DNA from: a virus
Taxonomy: Duplodnaviria > Caudoviricetes
Virus record (IMG/VR): IMGVR_UViG_3300012942_000541
Coordinates: 1 to 35,483 of that record
DNA: 35,483 nt
Direction: 5' to 3' (one strand)
Each line of letters starts with the position of its first letter. The stretch's first letter is position 1. A model generated the notes under the pieces. It saw only the letters and a list, made by a program, of their open reading frames with translations. It was not told where the DNA came from and ran no database searches. A program made the translations under genes and the position numbers. Below, in pieces: positions 10,134-35,402 of the stretch.

Positions 10134-10700
10134 ATGTCTCACACGACAGACACACCGGCATCCATCGGCAAGCAGGCCGATGCACCGGATTCCGGATCGG
10201 TGACGCTGATCGCCAATGGCGTCCAGTACCCGAATTTCAACCTGACGTTCGTTCTCGACAATGCCGGCGTTCCGGTCACGGACGCCAGTACGAGTGGATC
10301 GTATGGCGCTCTGAAACTGTTCGATTTCATCAAGGGCGCCGTGCATTTCGATGCGTCATATCAGAACTATACCGCCTTCGAGGAGGGTGCTGATCTGACA
10401 GGAGGTGCGGGCGATGCGTCGTTCGCCATCGGCGTCGGAACCGCTGGCATCGCGGCGGCGGCAGACGGCGCTTTGGCGACGACCTCCGTCGATCTCGGCA
10501 CATCGATCAGCGTCACGCTGTCGGGCGGCACCGGAACTGGCACGGCGGTCAAGGCGATTAACGCCGTATTCGACGGATCGGGCACCGCGAAGAGCATCTA
10601 TCTCAACGTCTCCGGCACCGCCGCGACGATCGATGCGAGTTCGACGCTCTCCGTCACCGGCACGGTAACGGTCTCGGGTTCGTTCCTGCCTGCTGACTAA
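10134..10700 (+). CDS. Putative capsid decoration protein
   Basis: Gly/Ala/Thr-rich beta protein after the capsid gene; GGAG RBS. Confidence 0.6.
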   Translation: MSHTTDTPASIGKQADAPDSGSVTLIANGVQYPNFNLTFVLDNAGVPVTDASTSGSYGALKLFDFIKGAVHFDASYQNYTAFEEGADLTGGAGDASFAIGVGTAGIAAAADGALATTSVDLGTSISVTLSGGTGTGTAVKAINAVFDGSGTAKSIYLNVSGTAATIDASSTLSVTGTVTVSGSFLPAD

Positions 10701-10724
10701 ACCGGTCCGACATCACCGCAACGC

Positions 10725-10757
10725 GGGCCGCTCCAATCTCGGGGCGGCCTTTTTCTT
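10725..10757 (+). terminator. Rho-independent terminator
   Basis: GGGCCGCTCC-AATCTC-GGGGCGGCCT then TTTTCTT. Confidence 0.8.
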
Positions 10758-10774
10758 GACCCTCAGGAGAGATC

Positions 10775-24827: not shown

Positions 24828-25057
24828 TGCCGCAACCCTTTCAAGGATCGTCTTGCCCAATAATGTAGCGCGAGCGCCGCAAGAATACAAACCAAGGTGC
24901 CAATAACGAGAGGCAGACCCACGGACTTGCCCCCGTAAAGCGCTGAAATCATGGGAGCAAAACCACCTACTGCCAGAACGGCAACGGCGATGCTATTGAG
25001 CCAGGACGCCGTGAGCTTCACGCGCTCATTGTGGACAGTCGTTACTAGGTCGTTCAT
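24824..25057 (-). CDS. Small two-TM protein
   Basis: HNERVKLTASWLNSIAVA motif; two hydrophobic helices; coupled to the repressor stop. Confidence 0.7.
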   Translation of the reverse strand: MNDLVTTVHNERVKLTASWLNSIAVAVLAVGGFAPMISALYGGKSVGLPLVIGTLVCILAALALHYWARRSLKGLRQ

Positions 25058-25266
25058 TCGTCGGTCTTCATAAGCCTGAACGTGGCCTCAACCATCGCCC
25101 GAATAGCTTCCGGACGCGTCGGTATAGGCCGCTGCTTGGATCGCCATTCGTCCAGCTTGGAAAGAAGGTCGGGCTGGAGACGCACGCCGATCAGCGTTCC
25201 CTTACCTGTAGCAGGAGGGCCGGGCTTTTTGCGAGATTGTGTTAACACGGTTGTTGACTTCGCCAT
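25054..25266 (-). CDS. Ribbon-helix-helix (Arc/Mnt/CopG-like) repressor
   Basis: GPPATGKGTLIGVRLQPDLLSKLDEW...TRPEAIRAMVE. Confidence 0.8.
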   Translation of the reverse strand: MAKSTTVLTQSRKKPGPPATGKGTLIGVRLQPDLLSKLDEWRSKQRPIPTRPEAIRAMVEATFRLMKTDE

Positions 25267-25284
25267 AAGAACTGTGTTAGCACA
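25238..25284 (+). promoter_or_regulatory. Rightward promoter with two palindromic operators
   Basis: TGTGTTAACACG (25238-25249) and TGTGTTAGCACA (25273-25284) flank TTGACT (25254-25259); the second overlaps the -10 position. Confidence 0.75.
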
Positions 25285-25358
25285 ATTAAGTCGGGCCGGA
25301 AAGGTGTCTCACCACCGATCCAGCCCTAACCGAAACCCTGATCGCGGAGGATCAAGGA

Positions 25359-25601
25359 ATGGCTGCCCGCAGCAATACCACGGCGCGTGTCTCGCGCTCA
25401 ACTCAATCAAAACAGGATGAAGTCATCGCCGGTCTGATGACCGACGCGAAGGGCAAAGCGAGGACCCTTCGCGTACTATCGAAAGTCCTTGCCGAGACCA
25501 TGGAGGAAATCCATGGCGGCAAATGGGTGACAAACATCGATCACGAACATCGCATGATCATGATCCTTGAGCATCCCCGCAGCTACGCGCAGAGCGTCTG
25601 A
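25359..25601 (+). CDS. Hypothetical protein, first gene of the rightward operon
   Basis: LAETMEEIHGGKWVTNIDHE; RBS upstream. Confidence 0.7.
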   Translation: MAARSNTTARVSRSTQSKQDEVIAGLMTDAKGKARTLRVLSKVLAETMEEIHGGKWVTNIDHEHRMIMILEHPRSYAQSV

Positions 25602-25734
25602 ACATCTCAACAACTGAATTCCCCGCTGCCATGGGGAAGAATGCAAACGACGAGCTTCATCGGCTCCGGCGTTTGTGAAAACGAACCCCTGTGCATTCCG
25701 GGCTTGGCAGGCCGGATGCCGATGGAGACAAGAC

Positions 25735-26412
25735 ATGGCACTCGCCAAGAAAGACATTGGAATCGAATTACCGAAACTGGACATTCGGCTGATGGAAGTG
25801 ACGGTGATCGGAGATAGCCCGCTGATCGTCCACGCATGGAGCCAAAAGGCCAAGATGGAAATGCTGGGCAAGCAGATGAAACAGGCGAAGGGAGCCAAGG
25901 AGGCCAAGGACCCTCGCGCGGATTTCGAGGCTTCCTTGTATCGTCTCAGCGACGGCTACGGGTTCCCGAGCGTCGGCTTCAAGAATGCTGCGGTAACAGC
26001 GTGCACATCCGTTGCCGGCATTACCAAGATCGCCGCGCGGCAAGCATTTCATATCCTCGGAGAGGATGTGGACGTGCAGGGCGCTTTCGAAGGAACGAAG
26101 GCCCGAAACAATCTCGTTCGCATCGAAGGCGGTGAACCAGCGATGCGCGAAGACATGGTGCGCGTTGGCATGGGAACGGCCGATCTTCGTTATCGCGGCG
26201 AATTTGCCGATTGGTATGCTCGACTGCTCGTTCGCTACAACGGGAATGTCCTGTCGGAAAGCCAGATCCTGAACATCCTGAACGTCGCCGGCTTCGCTGT
26301 TGGCGTCGGGGAATGGAGGCCAGAAAAAGACGGCATGTCCGGAATGTTCCATGTCGCTACGGAAGCCGATCTTGCCAAGCTGGAGGCCGCTCCCGAGCGG
26401 ACAGCAGCATGA
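25735..26412 (+). CDS. Stand-alone Cas7/RAMP-like protein
   Basis: RAMP-ordered motifs EVTVIGDSPLIVH, YGFPSVGFKNA and Gly-rich loop GVGEWRPEKDGMSGMF; ATG 25735 after GGAG. Confidence 0.7.
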   Translation: MALAKKDIGIELPKLDIRLMEVTVIGDSPLIVHAWSQKAKMEMLGKQMKQAKGAKEAKDPRADFEASLYRLSDGYGFPSVGFKNAAVTACTSVAGITKIAARQAFHILGEDVDVQGAFEGTKARNNLVRIEGGEPAMREDMVRVGMGTADLRYRGEFADWYARLLVRYNGNVLSESQILNILNVAGFAVGVGEWRPEKDGMSGMFHVATEADLAKLEAAPERTAA

Positions 26413-26936
26413 AGATCGCCGGTTTCGAATTCGGCGAAGGCACCCGGTTTCAAGCTGGCGCCCCGACTGATGCAAAGGCCGCAAAGCGCGTCGGTGAGCA
26501 TATCGAGCTGCTTCGGAAGCAATCCAGAGGCGAACTTACGCCGGAAGATATTCTGGCCGACGCCAAGAACGACAATTCGCCGTTGCACGATTACTTCGAA
26601 TGGTCGGACACGGCAGCTGCTCACCAATTCCGGCTCCAGCAGGCGAGGGGGCTAATCCGCGCAGTTGTCGCGATTTACGTGGATGAAAATAAGGAGAAGC
26701 CGGCGATTCGGACGCGAGCCTATGTCCATGTTCCAGAAGCTACGGCCCCTCACTATCGGGAAATGACGCACGCCATGTCGCAGACGAAAACGCGGCAGCT
26801 GATCCTACAGCAAGCGTGGCGCGATCTCCGGGCGTGGCGCGTTCGCTACCAGCATCTGAAAGAGTTCGCGGACCTGATCAAGGTTATGGATGAAGTCGAA
26901 GCATCCTTGCCGTCGCCCGCGAAGTCGGTAAATTGA
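26409..26936 (+). CDS. Helical partner protein of the RAMP-like gene
   Basis: ATGA overlap at 26409-26412; LTPEDILADAKNDNSPLHDYFEWSDTAAAHQFRLQQARGLI. Confidence 0.75.
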   Translation: MKIAGFEFGEGTRFQAGAPTDAKAAKRVGEHIELLRKQSRGELTPEDILADAKNDNSPLHDYFEWSDTAAAHQFRLQQARGLIRAVVAIYVDENKEKPAIRTRAYVHVPEATAPHYREMTHAMSQTKTRQLILQQAWRDLRAWRVRYQHLKEFADLIKVMDEVEASLPSPAKSVN

Positions 26937-26992
26937 GCGTACCGGTTATGGCGAGAGTTCCGGATCCAACCTCGCGCCCGAAAGGGTTTCAC

Positions 26993-27177
26993 GGCAGGCT
27001 AGTTATGGCAACGCCCGGCAGGCATGGCATGGCGGGTCCACGCATGGCGTGCCACGGTGTGGTAAGTCTTGGCAGGCGAGGCGCGTCCAGCCCATGCAAG
27101 TTATGGCTAGGCACGTTGTGGCAGGCTAGGCAACGCCAGCCGAGGCCAGTCAACGTGAGTCATGTCGCGTTCTGGCA
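26993..27177 (+). repeat. Array of 33 (GGY-like)NN pentamers in 4 units delimited by GGCA
   Basis: GGCA at 26993, 27017, 27071, 27120, 27174 separating 4, 10, 9 and 10 pentamers; position 3 is a pyrimidine in all 33. Confidence 0.92.
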
Positions 27178-27185
27178 ACACTGAG

Positions 27186-27212
27186 AAGGCGGTTCTTCGG
27201 AGCCGCCTTTTT
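27186..27212 (+). terminator. Rho-independent terminator with C(UUCG)G loop
   Basis: AAGGCGGTTC-TTCG-GAGCCGCCTT-TTT. Confidence 0.9.
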
Positions 27213-27374
27213 CATTCCGCTCGTTCTCTCCAGAAAGACGCCGGCGGCCTTGAGGATAGTGCGTCCTCGGGGGGCAGGCCGCCGGCTGCACTCGTTGAGG
27301 CGTGTGCGGATTGATCCTTCCCGAATGAAGGCGCGGCGTCAAGCGCCGCCATCATCATCAAAATAGAGGTCGAT

Positions 27375-27593
27375 ATGCAACTGGCATCCGAATGGGGGCG
27401 CATTTTGCGCCATGCCTGGTCAGTCAGGCTCATCGCGCTCGCCATCGCCGCTTCTCTCATTGAGGGCGCTGTTTCGCTTGCCGGCGAACTTACCGGCCTG
27501 CCGTTCTGGCTTCACGCCGTCGTCGTCATCATCGCGCCGCTGGTTGGTATGGGCGCTCTGTTCGCTCGTTTTCTGGCGCAAAAGGAATTCTGA
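27375..27593 (+). CDS. Putative holin
   Basis: WGRILRHAWSVRL then two TM helices; directly before the endolysin. Confidence 0.7.
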   Translation: MQLASEWGRILRHAWSVRLIALAIAASLIEGAVSLAGELTGLPFWLHAVVVIIAPLVGMGALFARFLAQKEF

Positions 27594-28057
27594 TGCCTGT
27601 GAACAATCCGAAACGGCTCGCGACCGGGACAGTCGCGGGCGCGATGCTCGTCGCGCTGGTGGGAGGCTTTGAGGGGCTGAGGCAGACTGCCTATCAGGAC
27701 GTGGGCGGCGTCTGGACGGTGTGCTACGGCGAAACCCAGCACGTCCATCCGGGCGATCGATACACCCCTGCGCAATGCAAGGCGAAGCTTTCCACTTCCC
27801 TGCAAAAATACGCCAAGGGCATTTCGGCCTGCGTCCATGTTCCGATGCCCGACAAGCGGTTCATCGCCCTGACGTCCTTCGCCTACAACGTTGGCGTCCG
27901 GACGGCGTGTCATTCCTCCGTCGTGCGCCTCATAAACGAAGGCCGCGCCGTCGAGGGATGCAACTACCTTCTCCATTACAACCGCGCGGCCGGGATCATC
28001 TTCCCCGGTCTGACCCGTCGTCGTGAGCGGGAACGCGCCTATTGCCTCGCCAACTGA
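27593..28057 (+). CDS. Endolysin, GH24 lysozyme with SAR-like N-terminus
   Basis: E-x8-D-x5-T triad (EGLRQTAYQDVGGVWT), FAYNVG, GLTRRRERE; Gly/Ala-rich N-terminal segment. Confidence 0.93.
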   Translation: MPVNNPKRLATGTVAGAMLVALVGGFEGLRQTAYQDVGGVWTVCYGETQHVHPGDRYTPAQCKAKLSTSLQKYAKGISACVHVPMPDKRFIALTSFAYNVGVRTACHSSVVRLINEGRAVEGCNYLLHYNRAAGIIFPGLTRRRERERAYCLAN

Positions 28058-29657: not shown

Positions 29658-29835
29658 GGAACTTCCAGAAATTTCAACCGTTTGGTCATCTGCGATGTGC
29701 CATTCTTCGCATCGGCATCTTTACCGCACTGCACAATGACACCATATTGTGCGAATAGCACATCCGGCATACAGTCCGATTCGAAGCTCGCGGGAGGCTT
29801 CTTTGGCTGTGATGCCAAAGATGGAGCGAATGAAA

Positions 29836-30399
29836 ATGCTGCTACCCGGATATGATGTCGCTAAGGCGGCTCAGGTGGTTGCCTATTTTGCGCTCAAATC
29901 TGGCGGAAAAATCAACGTGTTAAAATTGGCCAAGCTTCTTTATTTGGCTGATCGGGAATTTATGATCCGCTATGACGAACCCATGCTCTATGATCGGCTG
30001 GTTTCCATGCCGGACGGCCCCGTAACTTCCATAACAAACAATTTCATCGACGGTCGGCTTGAAGCGAGGATTTGGCAGACGTTCGTCTCTCCGCGCAGAG
30101 GATATGACGTATCGGCCGCAGGAGATATTGACTTTGAAGCGCTTGACGAACTGAGCCGAGCCGAGGTCGAGGTTCTTGAACATCTTTGGAGTAAGTTCGG
30201 CAGTTACGACAAATACGCCATTAGAGACTGGACGCACAATAAGGCGAACGTTCCGGAGTGGGAGGATCCCAAGGGGTCCTCATACGACATTTCATATGAA
30301 AAGATTTTCCGGCTCCTCGGGAAGCCCGATGCCAAGGCGCTAAATCAGCAGATCGATGAACGCCGGAAACTGTTTAAGGTTTTGTCAAATCACGCATGA
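29836..30399 (+). CDS. Panacea-domain (DUF4065/SocA-like) antitoxin
   Basis: LKLAKLLYLADRE, SMPDGPV, DWTH..VPEW motifs; start chosen by GGAG spacing (29812-29836 possible). Confidence 0.88.
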   Translation: MLLPGYDVAKAAQVVAYFALKSGGKINVLKLAKLLYLADREFMIRYDEPMLYDRLVSMPDGPVTSITNNFIDGRLEARIWQTFVSPRRGYDVSAAGDIDFEALDELSRAEVEVLEHLWSKFGSYDKYAIRDWTHNKANVPEWEDPKGSSYDISYEKIFRLLGKPDAKALNQQIDERRKLFKVLSNHA

Positions 30400-32935: not shown

Positions 32936-33160
32936 AAAAGGTGCGGGGGTCGCGCGAATTTCCACAAGGTTTTCAATGCCAGAAATGGGGCTAATCTGGC
33001 CGATAGGTGCGGGAAATAGTATAGCATATCCAGTTGATCCTGCTTGCATTTTCTTCGATCAGTTTTAACCCTAACGGATGGTTAATAGCCCAAGAAAAAG
33101 TGCTTGGCTTTCAAGCTCTTGCACCGTCATTTACCCGCACCTTTTGCGGGGTGCGGGTAT
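32936..33160. other. Putative attP with integrase arm-type repeats
   Basis: GGTGCGGG copies at 32936-32947, 33005-33017, 33129-33145 (inverted) and 33148-33160 around an AT-rich centre at the int 3' end. Confidence 0.7.
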
Positions 33161-34173
33161 AGCTTGTTCGCCGCGCGTTCCGCCAATCGCACCCGATCCG
33201 CCTTCTTCGTATAGATTTCGGCTACCTTGGTAGAGGTCCACCCGTACATCGCTGTAAGTTCGAAGGGTGTTGCGCCGTTGTTGGCCGCGAAGGTTGCGCC
33301 TGCCTTCCGTAGGCCATGGGCGCGCCCCGGAACGCCGGCCTCTTCGCATCGTGCGGCAAACCAATAACCGAAGCTGATATTCTTCCATGGCCGTCCACGC
33401 GTGTTGATGAGGAACACCAAATCGCCGGTCCTCGTCGCTTCGATCGACTTCGCCAGCGGCGGCAGGACTGGGATGGTGATCTCCGCGCCAGTCTTCTCCG
33501 TTCGAATACTGATGACGCCATTTTTGACGTGCTGCCTGCCGAGCGTGATCGCGTCAGATCTTCGGAGGCCAGTATAGAGCATGATATCGAGTGCGAGCCG
33601 GGCTTGTGTTCCGATTGCGTGCCGCTCCTGGTATTTGGCGACTTCTTCTACCGTCCACGTGTGATAGCCGTCCGTCTTTGATGGGCTAACCTTGATGTTC
33701 TCGGCGGGATTGACGCCTATCCAGCCGCTGTCTTTGGCAAACCGCAGCAGGGCGCGCATGGTGCGGACGTATTCGAGCGCCATGGTGGGCGTGCGTTCCC
33801 GGCGAACCATGGCAGCGCGAATATCGGCTTCATCTATTGCCGCGAAATTTAGATCACTCCCGTTCTCGCAGGCTTTTTCCAGCGCAAGACGTTGATTGCG
33901 TTTCGTGTTGGGGCGAAGCTTGTCGAAACGGCCACTCTCGTAATACCGGTCTACCAGCCACCGGAGCGTCGATCGCGGCGCCTCAGTCCGCTTCCCTACC
34001 TGCGTGCCAGCCAGCGCCGCATTATAGGCTGCGTTGAACTCTTTCGATCCAAAGACGCCGGGGAGCCTGACACGCTTCTCTTTACCACGCCGGAAATACC
34101 ATACGACCTTTCCGTGACGGGTCGTCTCTTTCTGAATAAACGGCTTCCGAGGGCGAGGCATAGAAGGCATCAC
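33127..34173 (-). CDS. int: Tyrosine recombinase / phage integrase
   Basis: TGLRRSD (R), EKTG (K), HGLRK, GW, EIYT (Y); N-terminal RHGKVVWYFRR arm-binding domain. Confidence 0.96.
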   Translation of the reverse strand: MMPSMPRPRKPFIQKETTRHGKVVWYFRRGKEKRVRLPGVFGSKEFNAAYNAALAGTQVGKRTEAPRSTLRWLVDRYYESGRFDKLRPNTKRNQRLALEKACENGSDLNFAAIDEADIRAAMVRRERTPTMALEYVRTMRALLRFAKDSGWIGVNPAENIKVSPSKTDGYHTWTVEEVAKYQERHAIGTQARLALDIMLYTGLRRSDAITLGRQHVKNGVISIRTEKTGAEITIPVLPPLAKSIEATRTGDLVFLINTRGRPWKNISFGYWFAARCEEAGVPGRAHGLRKAGATFAANNGATPFELTAMYGWTSTKVAEIYTKKADRVRLAERAANKLYPHPAKGAGK

Positions 34174-34352
34174 ATGAAGCCCTTACCCTTCTCGTCAATC
34201 GACTTTTCTTCCTGTGCAAGACTTCCGGGGACATTGGGGACAAGCTCAATCACTGTCTTGCCAATCCGTATACGCGTGATGCAGCCGGCCTTTTTCGCTC
34301 CCTCGCATAGAGCTTTCACCTGGCGCTGCGTAAGATCGAGCCTAGCCGCCAT
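34170..34352 (-). CDS. Small xis-like gene upstream of the integrase
   Basis: MAARLDLTQRQVKALCEGAKKAG..IRIGKTVIELVP; GGGAG RBS; coupled to int; function inferred from position. Confidence 0.55.
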   Translation of the reverse strand: MAARLDLTQRQVKALCEGAKKAGCITRIRIGKTVIELVPNVPGSLAQEEKSIDEKGKGFM

Positions 34353-34854
34353 AAAAGGCTCCCTCATGTCGAGCGCGCTCAGCCTCATAGGCTGCCTTTG
34401 CGGCGTCAATTGTAGGGAATGAACCGATGTAGATGGCCTTTCCAAAGACTTGAATCTTGGACTTGTAAGGGTTTTTTCGGCTTTTCTCGTTTAGATATAC
34501 CCCGCGCGGCAGAACGTTTTTCCGTGGTTGCTCAGCGTTAGTCATATTCTGTTGGTGTGTTGCTATTCTGAGATTAGACCAACGGTTATCCGTCTTCTTT
34601 CGATTTATATGATCGATGAACATTCCAACGGGGATATCGTGTCCTGTCATTAACGCATACGCCACCCGATGGGCTAAAATAGTGCGCCTTCTGCCCTCTT
34701 CGGTGAGGTCAACCGATAGATACCCTCGCGCATCAAGTCGCCCAACTGGCCGAAGAACGCCGGACGCATTGCCATATAATTGGCCGCTAGTCGGCTCATA
34801 CGCGTATTTGGTACGAAGGGCCTCGACGGGGAGGGGTAGCGCGACTTTTGGCAT
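34342..34854 (-). CDS. HNH endonuclease with C-terminal AP2-like domain
   Basis: LAHRVAY..IDHINRKKTDNRWSNLR..NMTN; RGVY..YIGSFPTIDAAKAAY; GGAG RBS before ATG 34854. Confidence 0.9.
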   Translation of the reverse strand: MPKVALPLPVEALRTKYAYEPTSGQLYGNASGVLRPVGRLDARGYLSVDLTEEGRRRTILAHRVAYALMTGHDIPVGMFIDHINRKKTDNRWSNLRIATHQQNMTNAEQPRKNVLPRGVYLNEKSRKNPYKSKIQVFGKAIYIGSFPTIDAAKAAYEAERARHEGAFYGG

Positions 34855-34926
34855 ATTGTTGGTCTCCAATCTTGTTGGAAAACCGTACCATATTTCTGAA
34901 GCGTACAACACAAAAATTTGTACGTT

Positions 34927-35034
34927 TCGGATAACCTTGTCGCCCATCTTGACTTCCACAATGGCATGTTCCGCTTCCGCGGCTCGCAGAAGCGTTTGAG
35001 CCTCCCGCTTGGTGAGGATCAGCGGCTTGCTCAC
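34927..35034 (-). pseudogene. Truncated xis-like paralogue reading in frame into the HNH gene
   Basis: GTG 35034 coupled to the upstream stop; LILTKREAQTLLRAAEAEHAIVEVKMGDKVIR aligns by eye with 34170-34352. Confidence 0.5.
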
Positions 35035-35402
35035 TTCTTTTCCTCCAGAGCGCGGCGATACGGAGCGATGGCGTCCTTTGCCAAGGTGCGTGGGTCGTTG
35101 TGGCCATCTGCGATCTTCTCCAGAACGGCGAAGAATCGCGATCCAGCCCATTCAAGACGTTGTTTCTGGTACCGGGCGTCCTCACGCTCCCGAGTCTCGC
35201 GCGTACGCTTCGCGACGACTTCCGGATCGTGCTGCTTGCAATAGGCACCGTCAGGGCCATGGCCGCGCTTTCGGGCGCATTGGCCCCAATGAGGCCAATT
35301 TCCAATATAGCGGGCCACTTCCTCGCAGCATCGCGTATAATCGGGCGGCCGCTTGGCAAGGTTGTCGCCATAGTGCTGCTTATAGCGGCTACTCCCCTGC
35401 AT
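35031..35402 (-). CDS. Hypothetical protein with a Cys3-His zinc-finger-like motif
   Basis: AGGAGG RBS; RCCEEV..QCARKRGHGPDGAYCKQH. Confidence 0.7.
   Translation of the reverse strand: MQGSSRYKQHYGDNLAKRPPDYTRCCEEVARYIGNWPHWGQCARKRGHGPDGAYCKQHDPEVVAKRTRETREREDARYQKQRLEWAGSRFFAVLEKIADGHNDPRTLAKDAIAPYRRALEEKK

Follow-up and report, generated by a model that had tools for sequence, protein, structure and literature searches.

The window analysed here, a 35,483-nucleotide stretch of viral DNA (IMG/VR record IMGVR_UViG_3300012942_000541), carries terminase, SU10-type portal and capsid, lysin and integrase genes, as judged from Pfam and PHROG matches, around a small cassette made of two overlapping genes, a structured leader and an array of short repeats (Table 1). 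The array starts 56 nt 3' of the two genes, and the lysis genes come directly after it. A contig from sequencing run X1, possibly the window's own source, spans positions 26552-27700 with 0 differences. The close homologues that bear names come from Mesorhizobium, Phyllobacterium, Sinorhizobium and Martelella, from which we infer a rhizobial host; given the SU10-like head genes and the integrase, this is likely a temperate phage of such a host. The two genes and the array are presumably co-transcribed up to the terminator-like hairpin. A promoter scan returned 0 sites, and a consensus terminator scan missed this hairpin, which follows the last GGCA after only a short spacer and has strong counterparts behind the arrays of relatives. 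Just upstream of the cassette, a small repressor-like gene (25054-25266, minus strand, phrog_4738) is divergent to another small gene (25359-25601, plus strand, phrog_32610, function unknown), and the two may act as controllers of the cassette. Past the lysis genes lie genes for a Panacea/SocA-like antitoxin (29749-30399), an integrase (33127-34173) and an HNH endonuclease (34342-35151).

Table 1. Features of the cassette, in window coordinates
Feature	Position	Strand	Description
Structured 5' leader of vipr	25650..25737	+	Conserved, multi-stem; long closing stem reaches a Shine-Dalgarno-like GGAG
vipr	25738..26412	+	224 aa; RAMP (Cas7-like) protein with G-loop
Accessory (vap-like) gene	26409..26936	+	175 aa; overlaps the vipr stop
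Array leader A	26945..26992	+	8-bp stem with one bulge, plus second hairpin; abuts the first GGCA
GGCA + unit 1	26993..27016	+	4 pentamers; probably a truncated guide
GGCA + unit 2	27017..27070	+	10 pentamers; predicted guide to a phage antirepressor start
GGCA + unit 3	27071..27119	+	9 pentamers; DnaB N-terminal domain as lead
GGCA + unit 4	27120..27173	+	10 pentamers; predicted guide to a major-capsid gene family
Terminal GGCAA	27174..27178	+	Closes the last guide; AA mismatches the unit-4 target bases GG
Terminator-like hairpin	27186..27212	+	UUCG loop, U-run; -20.4 kcal/mol, z -5.3

We first consider the two proteins. The vipr product matches the Vipr of Escherichia phage SUSP1 (PDB 36pp) with a phmmer E of 2e-5, reaches SUSP1 by tblastn at 23.5% identity and scores 94.9% against SUSP1 Vipr in hhalign. 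Its AlphaFold model (pLDDT 79.6) finds CRISPR Csm3/Cmr/Cas7 subunits as best matches in Foldseek. This Vipr homologue lies outside any CRISPR locus, no CRISPR-like tandem array being present in the window. The residues through which SUSP1 Vipr reads its triplets, H17, R138, D177, W178 and R179 (10.64898/2026.04.26.720927, available part), align to H32, R153, E192, W193 and R194, all five of which are invariant among 34 homologues that are 79-93% identical. The accessory protein has 622 homologues; it displays no similarity to the product of the gene that follows SUSP1 vipr (vap1; hhalign 0.1%, with a single sequence as template) and had no match in the Foldseek PDB search at E<=0.001. Pfam holds no family for either product, and the PHROG families to which they belong, phrog_4652 for vipr and phrog_15946 for the accessory gene, are annotated as unknown.

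The array occupies 185 nt (26993-27177). The earlier note had read it as GGCA-delimited units of 4, 10, 9 and 10 pentamers, each pentamer being a GGY-like triplet followed by two variable bases (NN), and this parse holds, with a closing GGCA and no leftover bases: 15 of the 33 triplets are exact GGY, the other 18 are a single change away (55% departures), and triplet position 3 is C (n = 26) or T (n = 7) and nothing else in the window array. The array keeps to this grammar for 38 steps. No stretch in the rest of the window, on either strand, exceeds 7 steps; 60 dinucleotide-shuffled versions of the window reach 9 at the most, and 5000 shuffled versions of the array 10. The note's argument against a simple microsatellite is supported, and the NN are the information-bearing part. 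Three of its statements have to be narrowed. The triplets lack A in the window array but not in relatives, where A occurs at 35 of 1800 triplet positions and GGA makes up 21 of 600 triplets. The NN do carry information, but their freedom is not complete, as they are A-rich and use 12 of the 16 dinucleotides. And GGCA is a junction at its other occurrences, but the last one (27174-27177) is the end of the array, with no further unit behind. Triplet class and neighbouring NN are weakly associated (mutual information 0.12 versus 0.07 when shuffled). Tandem Repeats Finder, run on the window, did not detect the array, and a tRNA search of the window found none. When folded and compared with shuffles, unit 4 does better (z -3.3) and units 2 and 3 do no better.

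We then compared the locus with its relatives, using a set of 34 close loci (the window and 33 others, with two duplicates and four distant loci excluded). An array is called behind the same two genes in 30 of them; among the other four, three loci stop no more than 550 nt from vipr, and the array of the fourth is short and degenerate. The four-base slips between units (n = 108) are mostly GGCA (91), with GGCT next (12). Counting the window together with its relatives, 69 units are bounded, and 62 of these hold 8-12 pentamers (~40-60 nt). The entropy of the NN is higher than that of the triplets (1.9/1.8 bits versus 0.3/1.0/1.2 bits); the parser prefers GGY-like triplets, which by itself lowers the triplet values to some extent. 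The arrays of L012 and L028 have eight NN in common.

Such an organization recalls VIPR, a system first published in 2026 together with staggered arrays of overlapping vrRNAs, in which each NN pairs with the target and one base is skipped (10.64898/2026.04.26.720920). With this one-base skip, unit 2 has two 20/20 sites, in the prophages L160 and L189, each of them covering the start codon of a gene for a P22_AR_N antirepressor; further relatives score 19/20 (L162, L163) and 17/20 (L164). The skipped base is the wobble position of the codons, and the match stops at GGCA, with CC and CG as the bases flanking the site. One of the two exact sites, in a gene that adjoins a lysin gene, is the single 20/20 match in IMG/VR, where ~0.07 such matches would be expected by chance on a rough estimate from the 16-base background. 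The other is the single 20/20 match among 401 genomes of the likely host family (that of G002); two more of these match at two mismatches, the reversed-pattern control giving 0.

Unit 4 pairs with codon positions 1 and 2 of the motif YNQEHNEIAL, the variable wobble base being skipped, and its match also stops at GGCA (flanking bases GT and GG). The 16-base core made of its first eight NN occurs in ~420 viral stretches of IMG/VR, compared with 16 and 17 for two 16-base patterns from unit 3. Of 120 matches fetched, 90 belong to one capsid gene family, and 56 match at 20/20; the target gene encodes a major capsid protein whose nearest cultured relatives are ~40% identical. No exact match to unit 4 was found in the 401 genomes, and at one or two mismatches it hits 5 of them versus 4 for the control, i.e. 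chance level. In another phage, L026, the second unit of the array (11268) has the same eight NN as unit 4, shifted by one codon and set in other triplets, hence the NN are kept and the scaffold is not; by its sequence, the L026 phage aims at the same capsid site as the window phage. One 20/20 target of unit 4, L083, stands on the same contig as L017, which encodes an 80%-identical Vipr, and this contig is the only link to the hosts of the capsid-family phages.

Unit 3 has no more than a candidate target. It has 0 exact matches in viral contigs and 15 in metagenome contigs, mostly unrelated or out of frame; at one mismatch it occurs in 2 of the 401 genomes (control 1), neither site lying in an open frame, and it occurs in 0 of 4 genomes with Vipr relatives. 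Five of its 48 near matches (15 + 16 + 17) fall in DnaB N-terminal domains, at 18, 17, 16, 16 and 16 of 18, the 18/18 match being on a metagenome contig; a DnaB-shaped pattern search recovered just one of these five sites. Because DnaB is abundant, we keep the helicase only as a lead. Within the window itself, no unit matches at more than 14/20 or 14/18, giving no sign of self-targeting.

The pairing rule was also evaluated family-wide, against 1.2 Mb of neighbouring phage DNA. A skip of one base performs best, with 13 of 86 guides matching at 85% or more versus 2, 1 and 1 for skips of 0, 2 and 3 bases; at 90% or more, 5 of 83 guides match with a skip of one versus 0 in each of 12 shuffles. 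In this small local set, 70 of the 83 guides have no match at 85% or more. The arrays of L011, L012, L021 and L023 match L013, L011, L019 and L026 at 15/16 to 18/18; these sites lie in other Vipr-bearing phages, in frame and on the coding strand, and at least one resembles a virion-gene motif.

The earlier note had proposed that GGCA may mark unit boundaries and that related arrays should be compared for gain or loss of whole units. The boundary reading is borne out: target matches end at GGCA, unit length is constrained, and a variant array shows the swap of a whole unit. In seven strong guide-target pairs, three of which had been fetched by the pattern itself, the AG of the junction matches the target at 4/14 and 2/14, i.e. 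at chance level, and the NN of the neighbouring units match at 2/10 and 5/14. The skipped target base is not clearly copied by triplet position 3 (25 of 63). The variant, seen in contigs of runs X2, X4 and X5 (one study, depth 2.8-4), is unchanged in units 2 and 4 as far as its contigs reach and has a different 8-pentamer unit in place of unit 3, with 13 letters differing and 5 missing within 27078-27114; in X4 and X5, other pentamers also stand ahead of 27017. The target ends and the replacement of unit 3 together indicate that GGCA marks functional as well as evolutionary unit boundaries, and that, as read from these alignments, whole units are exchanged at GGCA. One oddity stands against a clean boundary, namely a partial match of unit 1 just upstream of the unit-2 site, to which we return below.

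The array is preceded by a structured leader whose slot, from the end of vap to the first GGCA, can hold either of two unrelated motifs: in a regex search of 44 loci, duplicates included, motif A was present in 19 and motif B in 12. Since 13 of the 44 have neither, the leader may be dispensable. In 17 sequences every pair of the leader A stem is kept, and two of the eight pairs change on both sides; alone, leader A folds no better than shuffles (z 0.4). Leader B, found in L001, L003, L004, L008, L012, L013, L019, L021, L027 and L033, has three stem pairs that change on both sides and a loop able to pair with the first junction, the five loop-junction pairs showing no covariation. The 5' leader of vipr has 21 predicted pairs over 12 chosen loci, 6 of them changed on both sides, and possibly serves the translational control of vipr. 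A search of 25200-27500 against Rfam gave two weak matches only, far below the gathering score (E 1.7 and 2.8), with no ribozyme family, hammerhead-type included, matched at E<=5, and five related loci gave no match at the gathering score. Compared by eye with the layouts of hammerhead, twister, pistol and HDV-like ribozymes, the leaders show no evident fit. A 5' array leader is mentioned neither in the text of 10.64898/2026.04.26.720920 nor, by term search, in the available part of 10.64898/2026.10.15.759431.

Taken together, we conclude with high confidence that 26993-27177 encodes the guide RNAs of a phage-borne VIPR system, arranged in the staggered layout. The likeness to the published staggered arrays is close: a phage vipr, an accessory gene and a GGY/NN array, with 9-10 repeats per guide (10.64898/2026.04.26.720920, fig. 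S18 legend). GGCA followed by GGC fits the one-base overlap between guides published there. That layout is given as a diagram, the available text naming no targets for it, whereas targets, boundaries, unit exchange and a 5' leader are seen here. The locus also resembles Type II VIPR of phage SUSP1 and of a Pseudomonas fulva prophage, as described in the available parts of 10.64898/2026.04.26.720920, 10.64898/2026.04.26.720927, 10.64898/2026.10.15.759431 and PDB 36pp, in its homologous Vipr with the triplet-reading residues kept, in the one-base skip at the wobble position and in its targets, which lie in competing mobile elements and include lysis-lysogeny regulators. It differs from SUSP1 by the low identity of Vipr (~23%), by a Glu instead of Asp177 and by an accessory gene that shows no similarity to vap1 in the hhalign comparison, and from Type II VIPR, as far as these sources describe it, by units that stand back to back without the ~40-nt structured pseudoknot 3' tail. 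Unlike the hammerhead-interspersed VIPR arrays (types I and V), it leaves no space between units. With the Cas7/Csm3 backbones of Class 1 CRISPR it shares the RAMP fold and a predicted filament on guide RNA, but it has neither CRISPR repeats nor other cas genes, and its pairing is gapped, not contiguous. A further VIPR paper is 10.64898/2026.10.21.760802, available in part.

Going by the homology to SUSP1 Vipr, and taking filament assembly, the one-base skip and transcriptional repression from the SUSP1 and P. fulva work, each GGCA-bounded unit is predicted to be one guide for the Vipr encoded upstream. Vipr would polymerise on the unit, one subunit per pentamer, hiding the GGY-like triplets, while the NN would pair with the DNA of rival phages, every third base being skipped, and the bound gene would be silenced through a transcription block. 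Sitting on the start of the antirepressor gene, Vipr would hold a rival prophage in the repressed state and so block its lytic switch; Vipr in the capsid gene would lower the rival's virion output. The 18 non-GGY triplets count against this reading, as replacement of GGY abolished silencing in SUSP1 (10.64898/2026.04.26.720920, fig. S12 legend), and we assume that silencing tolerates GTY, GCY and CGY triplets here. The missing 3' tail, the chance-level result for unit 4 in the 401 genomes and the many family guides with no match also count against it. The units would be separated at the one-base slip, most likely because filaments cannot hold register across GGCA: neighbouring filaments would be out of register there and the exposed joint would be cut.

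This last step is where a different reading parts from ours, and there only. The array might stay uncut, as one RNA of ~230-270 nt carrying tandem Vipr filaments, with GGCA resetting the register and serving as a recombination joint. The units are separated by no tails, ribozymes or hairpins, a single leader and a single terminator frame them all, and vap has no nuclease identified by Foldseek, all of which suits an uncut RNA. The published staggered arrays, however, are drawn as individually processed RNAs (10.64898/2026.04.26.720920, fig. S18 legend), although in the text of that paper sequencing confirms the ribozyme and single-guide layouts and not the staggered one; it would also seem wasteful to tether filaments aimed at different genomes. 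We regard the uncut, multi-filament array as possible but doubtful, and lean slightly towards cutting at the slip.

The partial match of unit 1 raises a second question, whether unit 1 is in fact the front part of unit 2, in a single 14-pentamer guide that is broken by a slipped GGCA and covers both the ribosome-binding site and the antirepressor start. If GGCA takes no target base, the bases immediately 5' of the unit-2 site agree with the NN of unit 1 at 6/8 in L161 and 5/8 in L189; in three further relatives of the antirepressor, agreement drops to 1/8, 1/8 and 3/8, and the variants X4 and X5, with their other pentamers before unit 2, break at 27017. Such a fused guide is improbable, and unit 1 is probably a truncated one. 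It is very unlikely that the array works as DNA, be it as Vipr/Vap binding or decoy sites or as a recombination cassette: units do recombine at GGCA, but for the SUSP1 homologue such repeats are an RNA ligand, and the covarying stem of the leader, with a terminator on the same strand, suggests that the array is transcribed. Finally, two readings have next to no chance, namely that the array belongs to a short protein-coding gene (ORF 26933-27184, 83 aa) or that it is a simple repeat that has decayed: one plus-strand frame is open across the window array, but of 24 related arrays just 11 have a stop-free plus frame, their peptides being unrelated and their lengths out of phase, and neither idea explains a five-base period whose NN decode to the codons of other phages, so that target decoding and the relatives' reading frames contradict both.

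Returning to the staggered guide array, we can sketch how it might be matured and renewed in this clade of rhizobial phages. The GGCA slip could be both the maturation signal and the joint for guide swapping, and the leader, in its two interchangeable forms, one of which could pair with the first junction, could be an RNA element of a new kind, a loading handle or a leader that cleaves itself, releasing the array from the vipr-vap message. We hold this scheme to be rather unlikely as a whole; if true, the locus would show VIPR array processing and renewal without tails, inter-guide ribozymes or a Cas1-like integrase. Neither VIPR nor its staggered arrays are new to the literature; the value of this locus is that of a test case for processing and renewal, with two decoded targets that have sharp boundaries, a whole-unit variant and another phage in which the guide content recurs on different triplets. 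What it adds is a computed case for GGCA units as separate guides, two targets, a unit swap and a structured leader. Tailless ~50-nt guides, if they work, would be the most compact multiplexed VIPR format and would define how much triplet degeneracy is tolerated, and rhizobial phages would be fighting over the start codon of the antirepressor and over the capsid gene.

More distant relatives show other forms of the array. In L034, L035 and L037, whose Vipr proteins are 56-59% identical, the staggered arrays are far longer (620-860 nt); that of L037 holds repeated units, and L034 and L035 have units in common in a different order. In L038, with a 42%-identical Vipr, the array (10662-10764) lies directly after vipr, ahead of the next gene.
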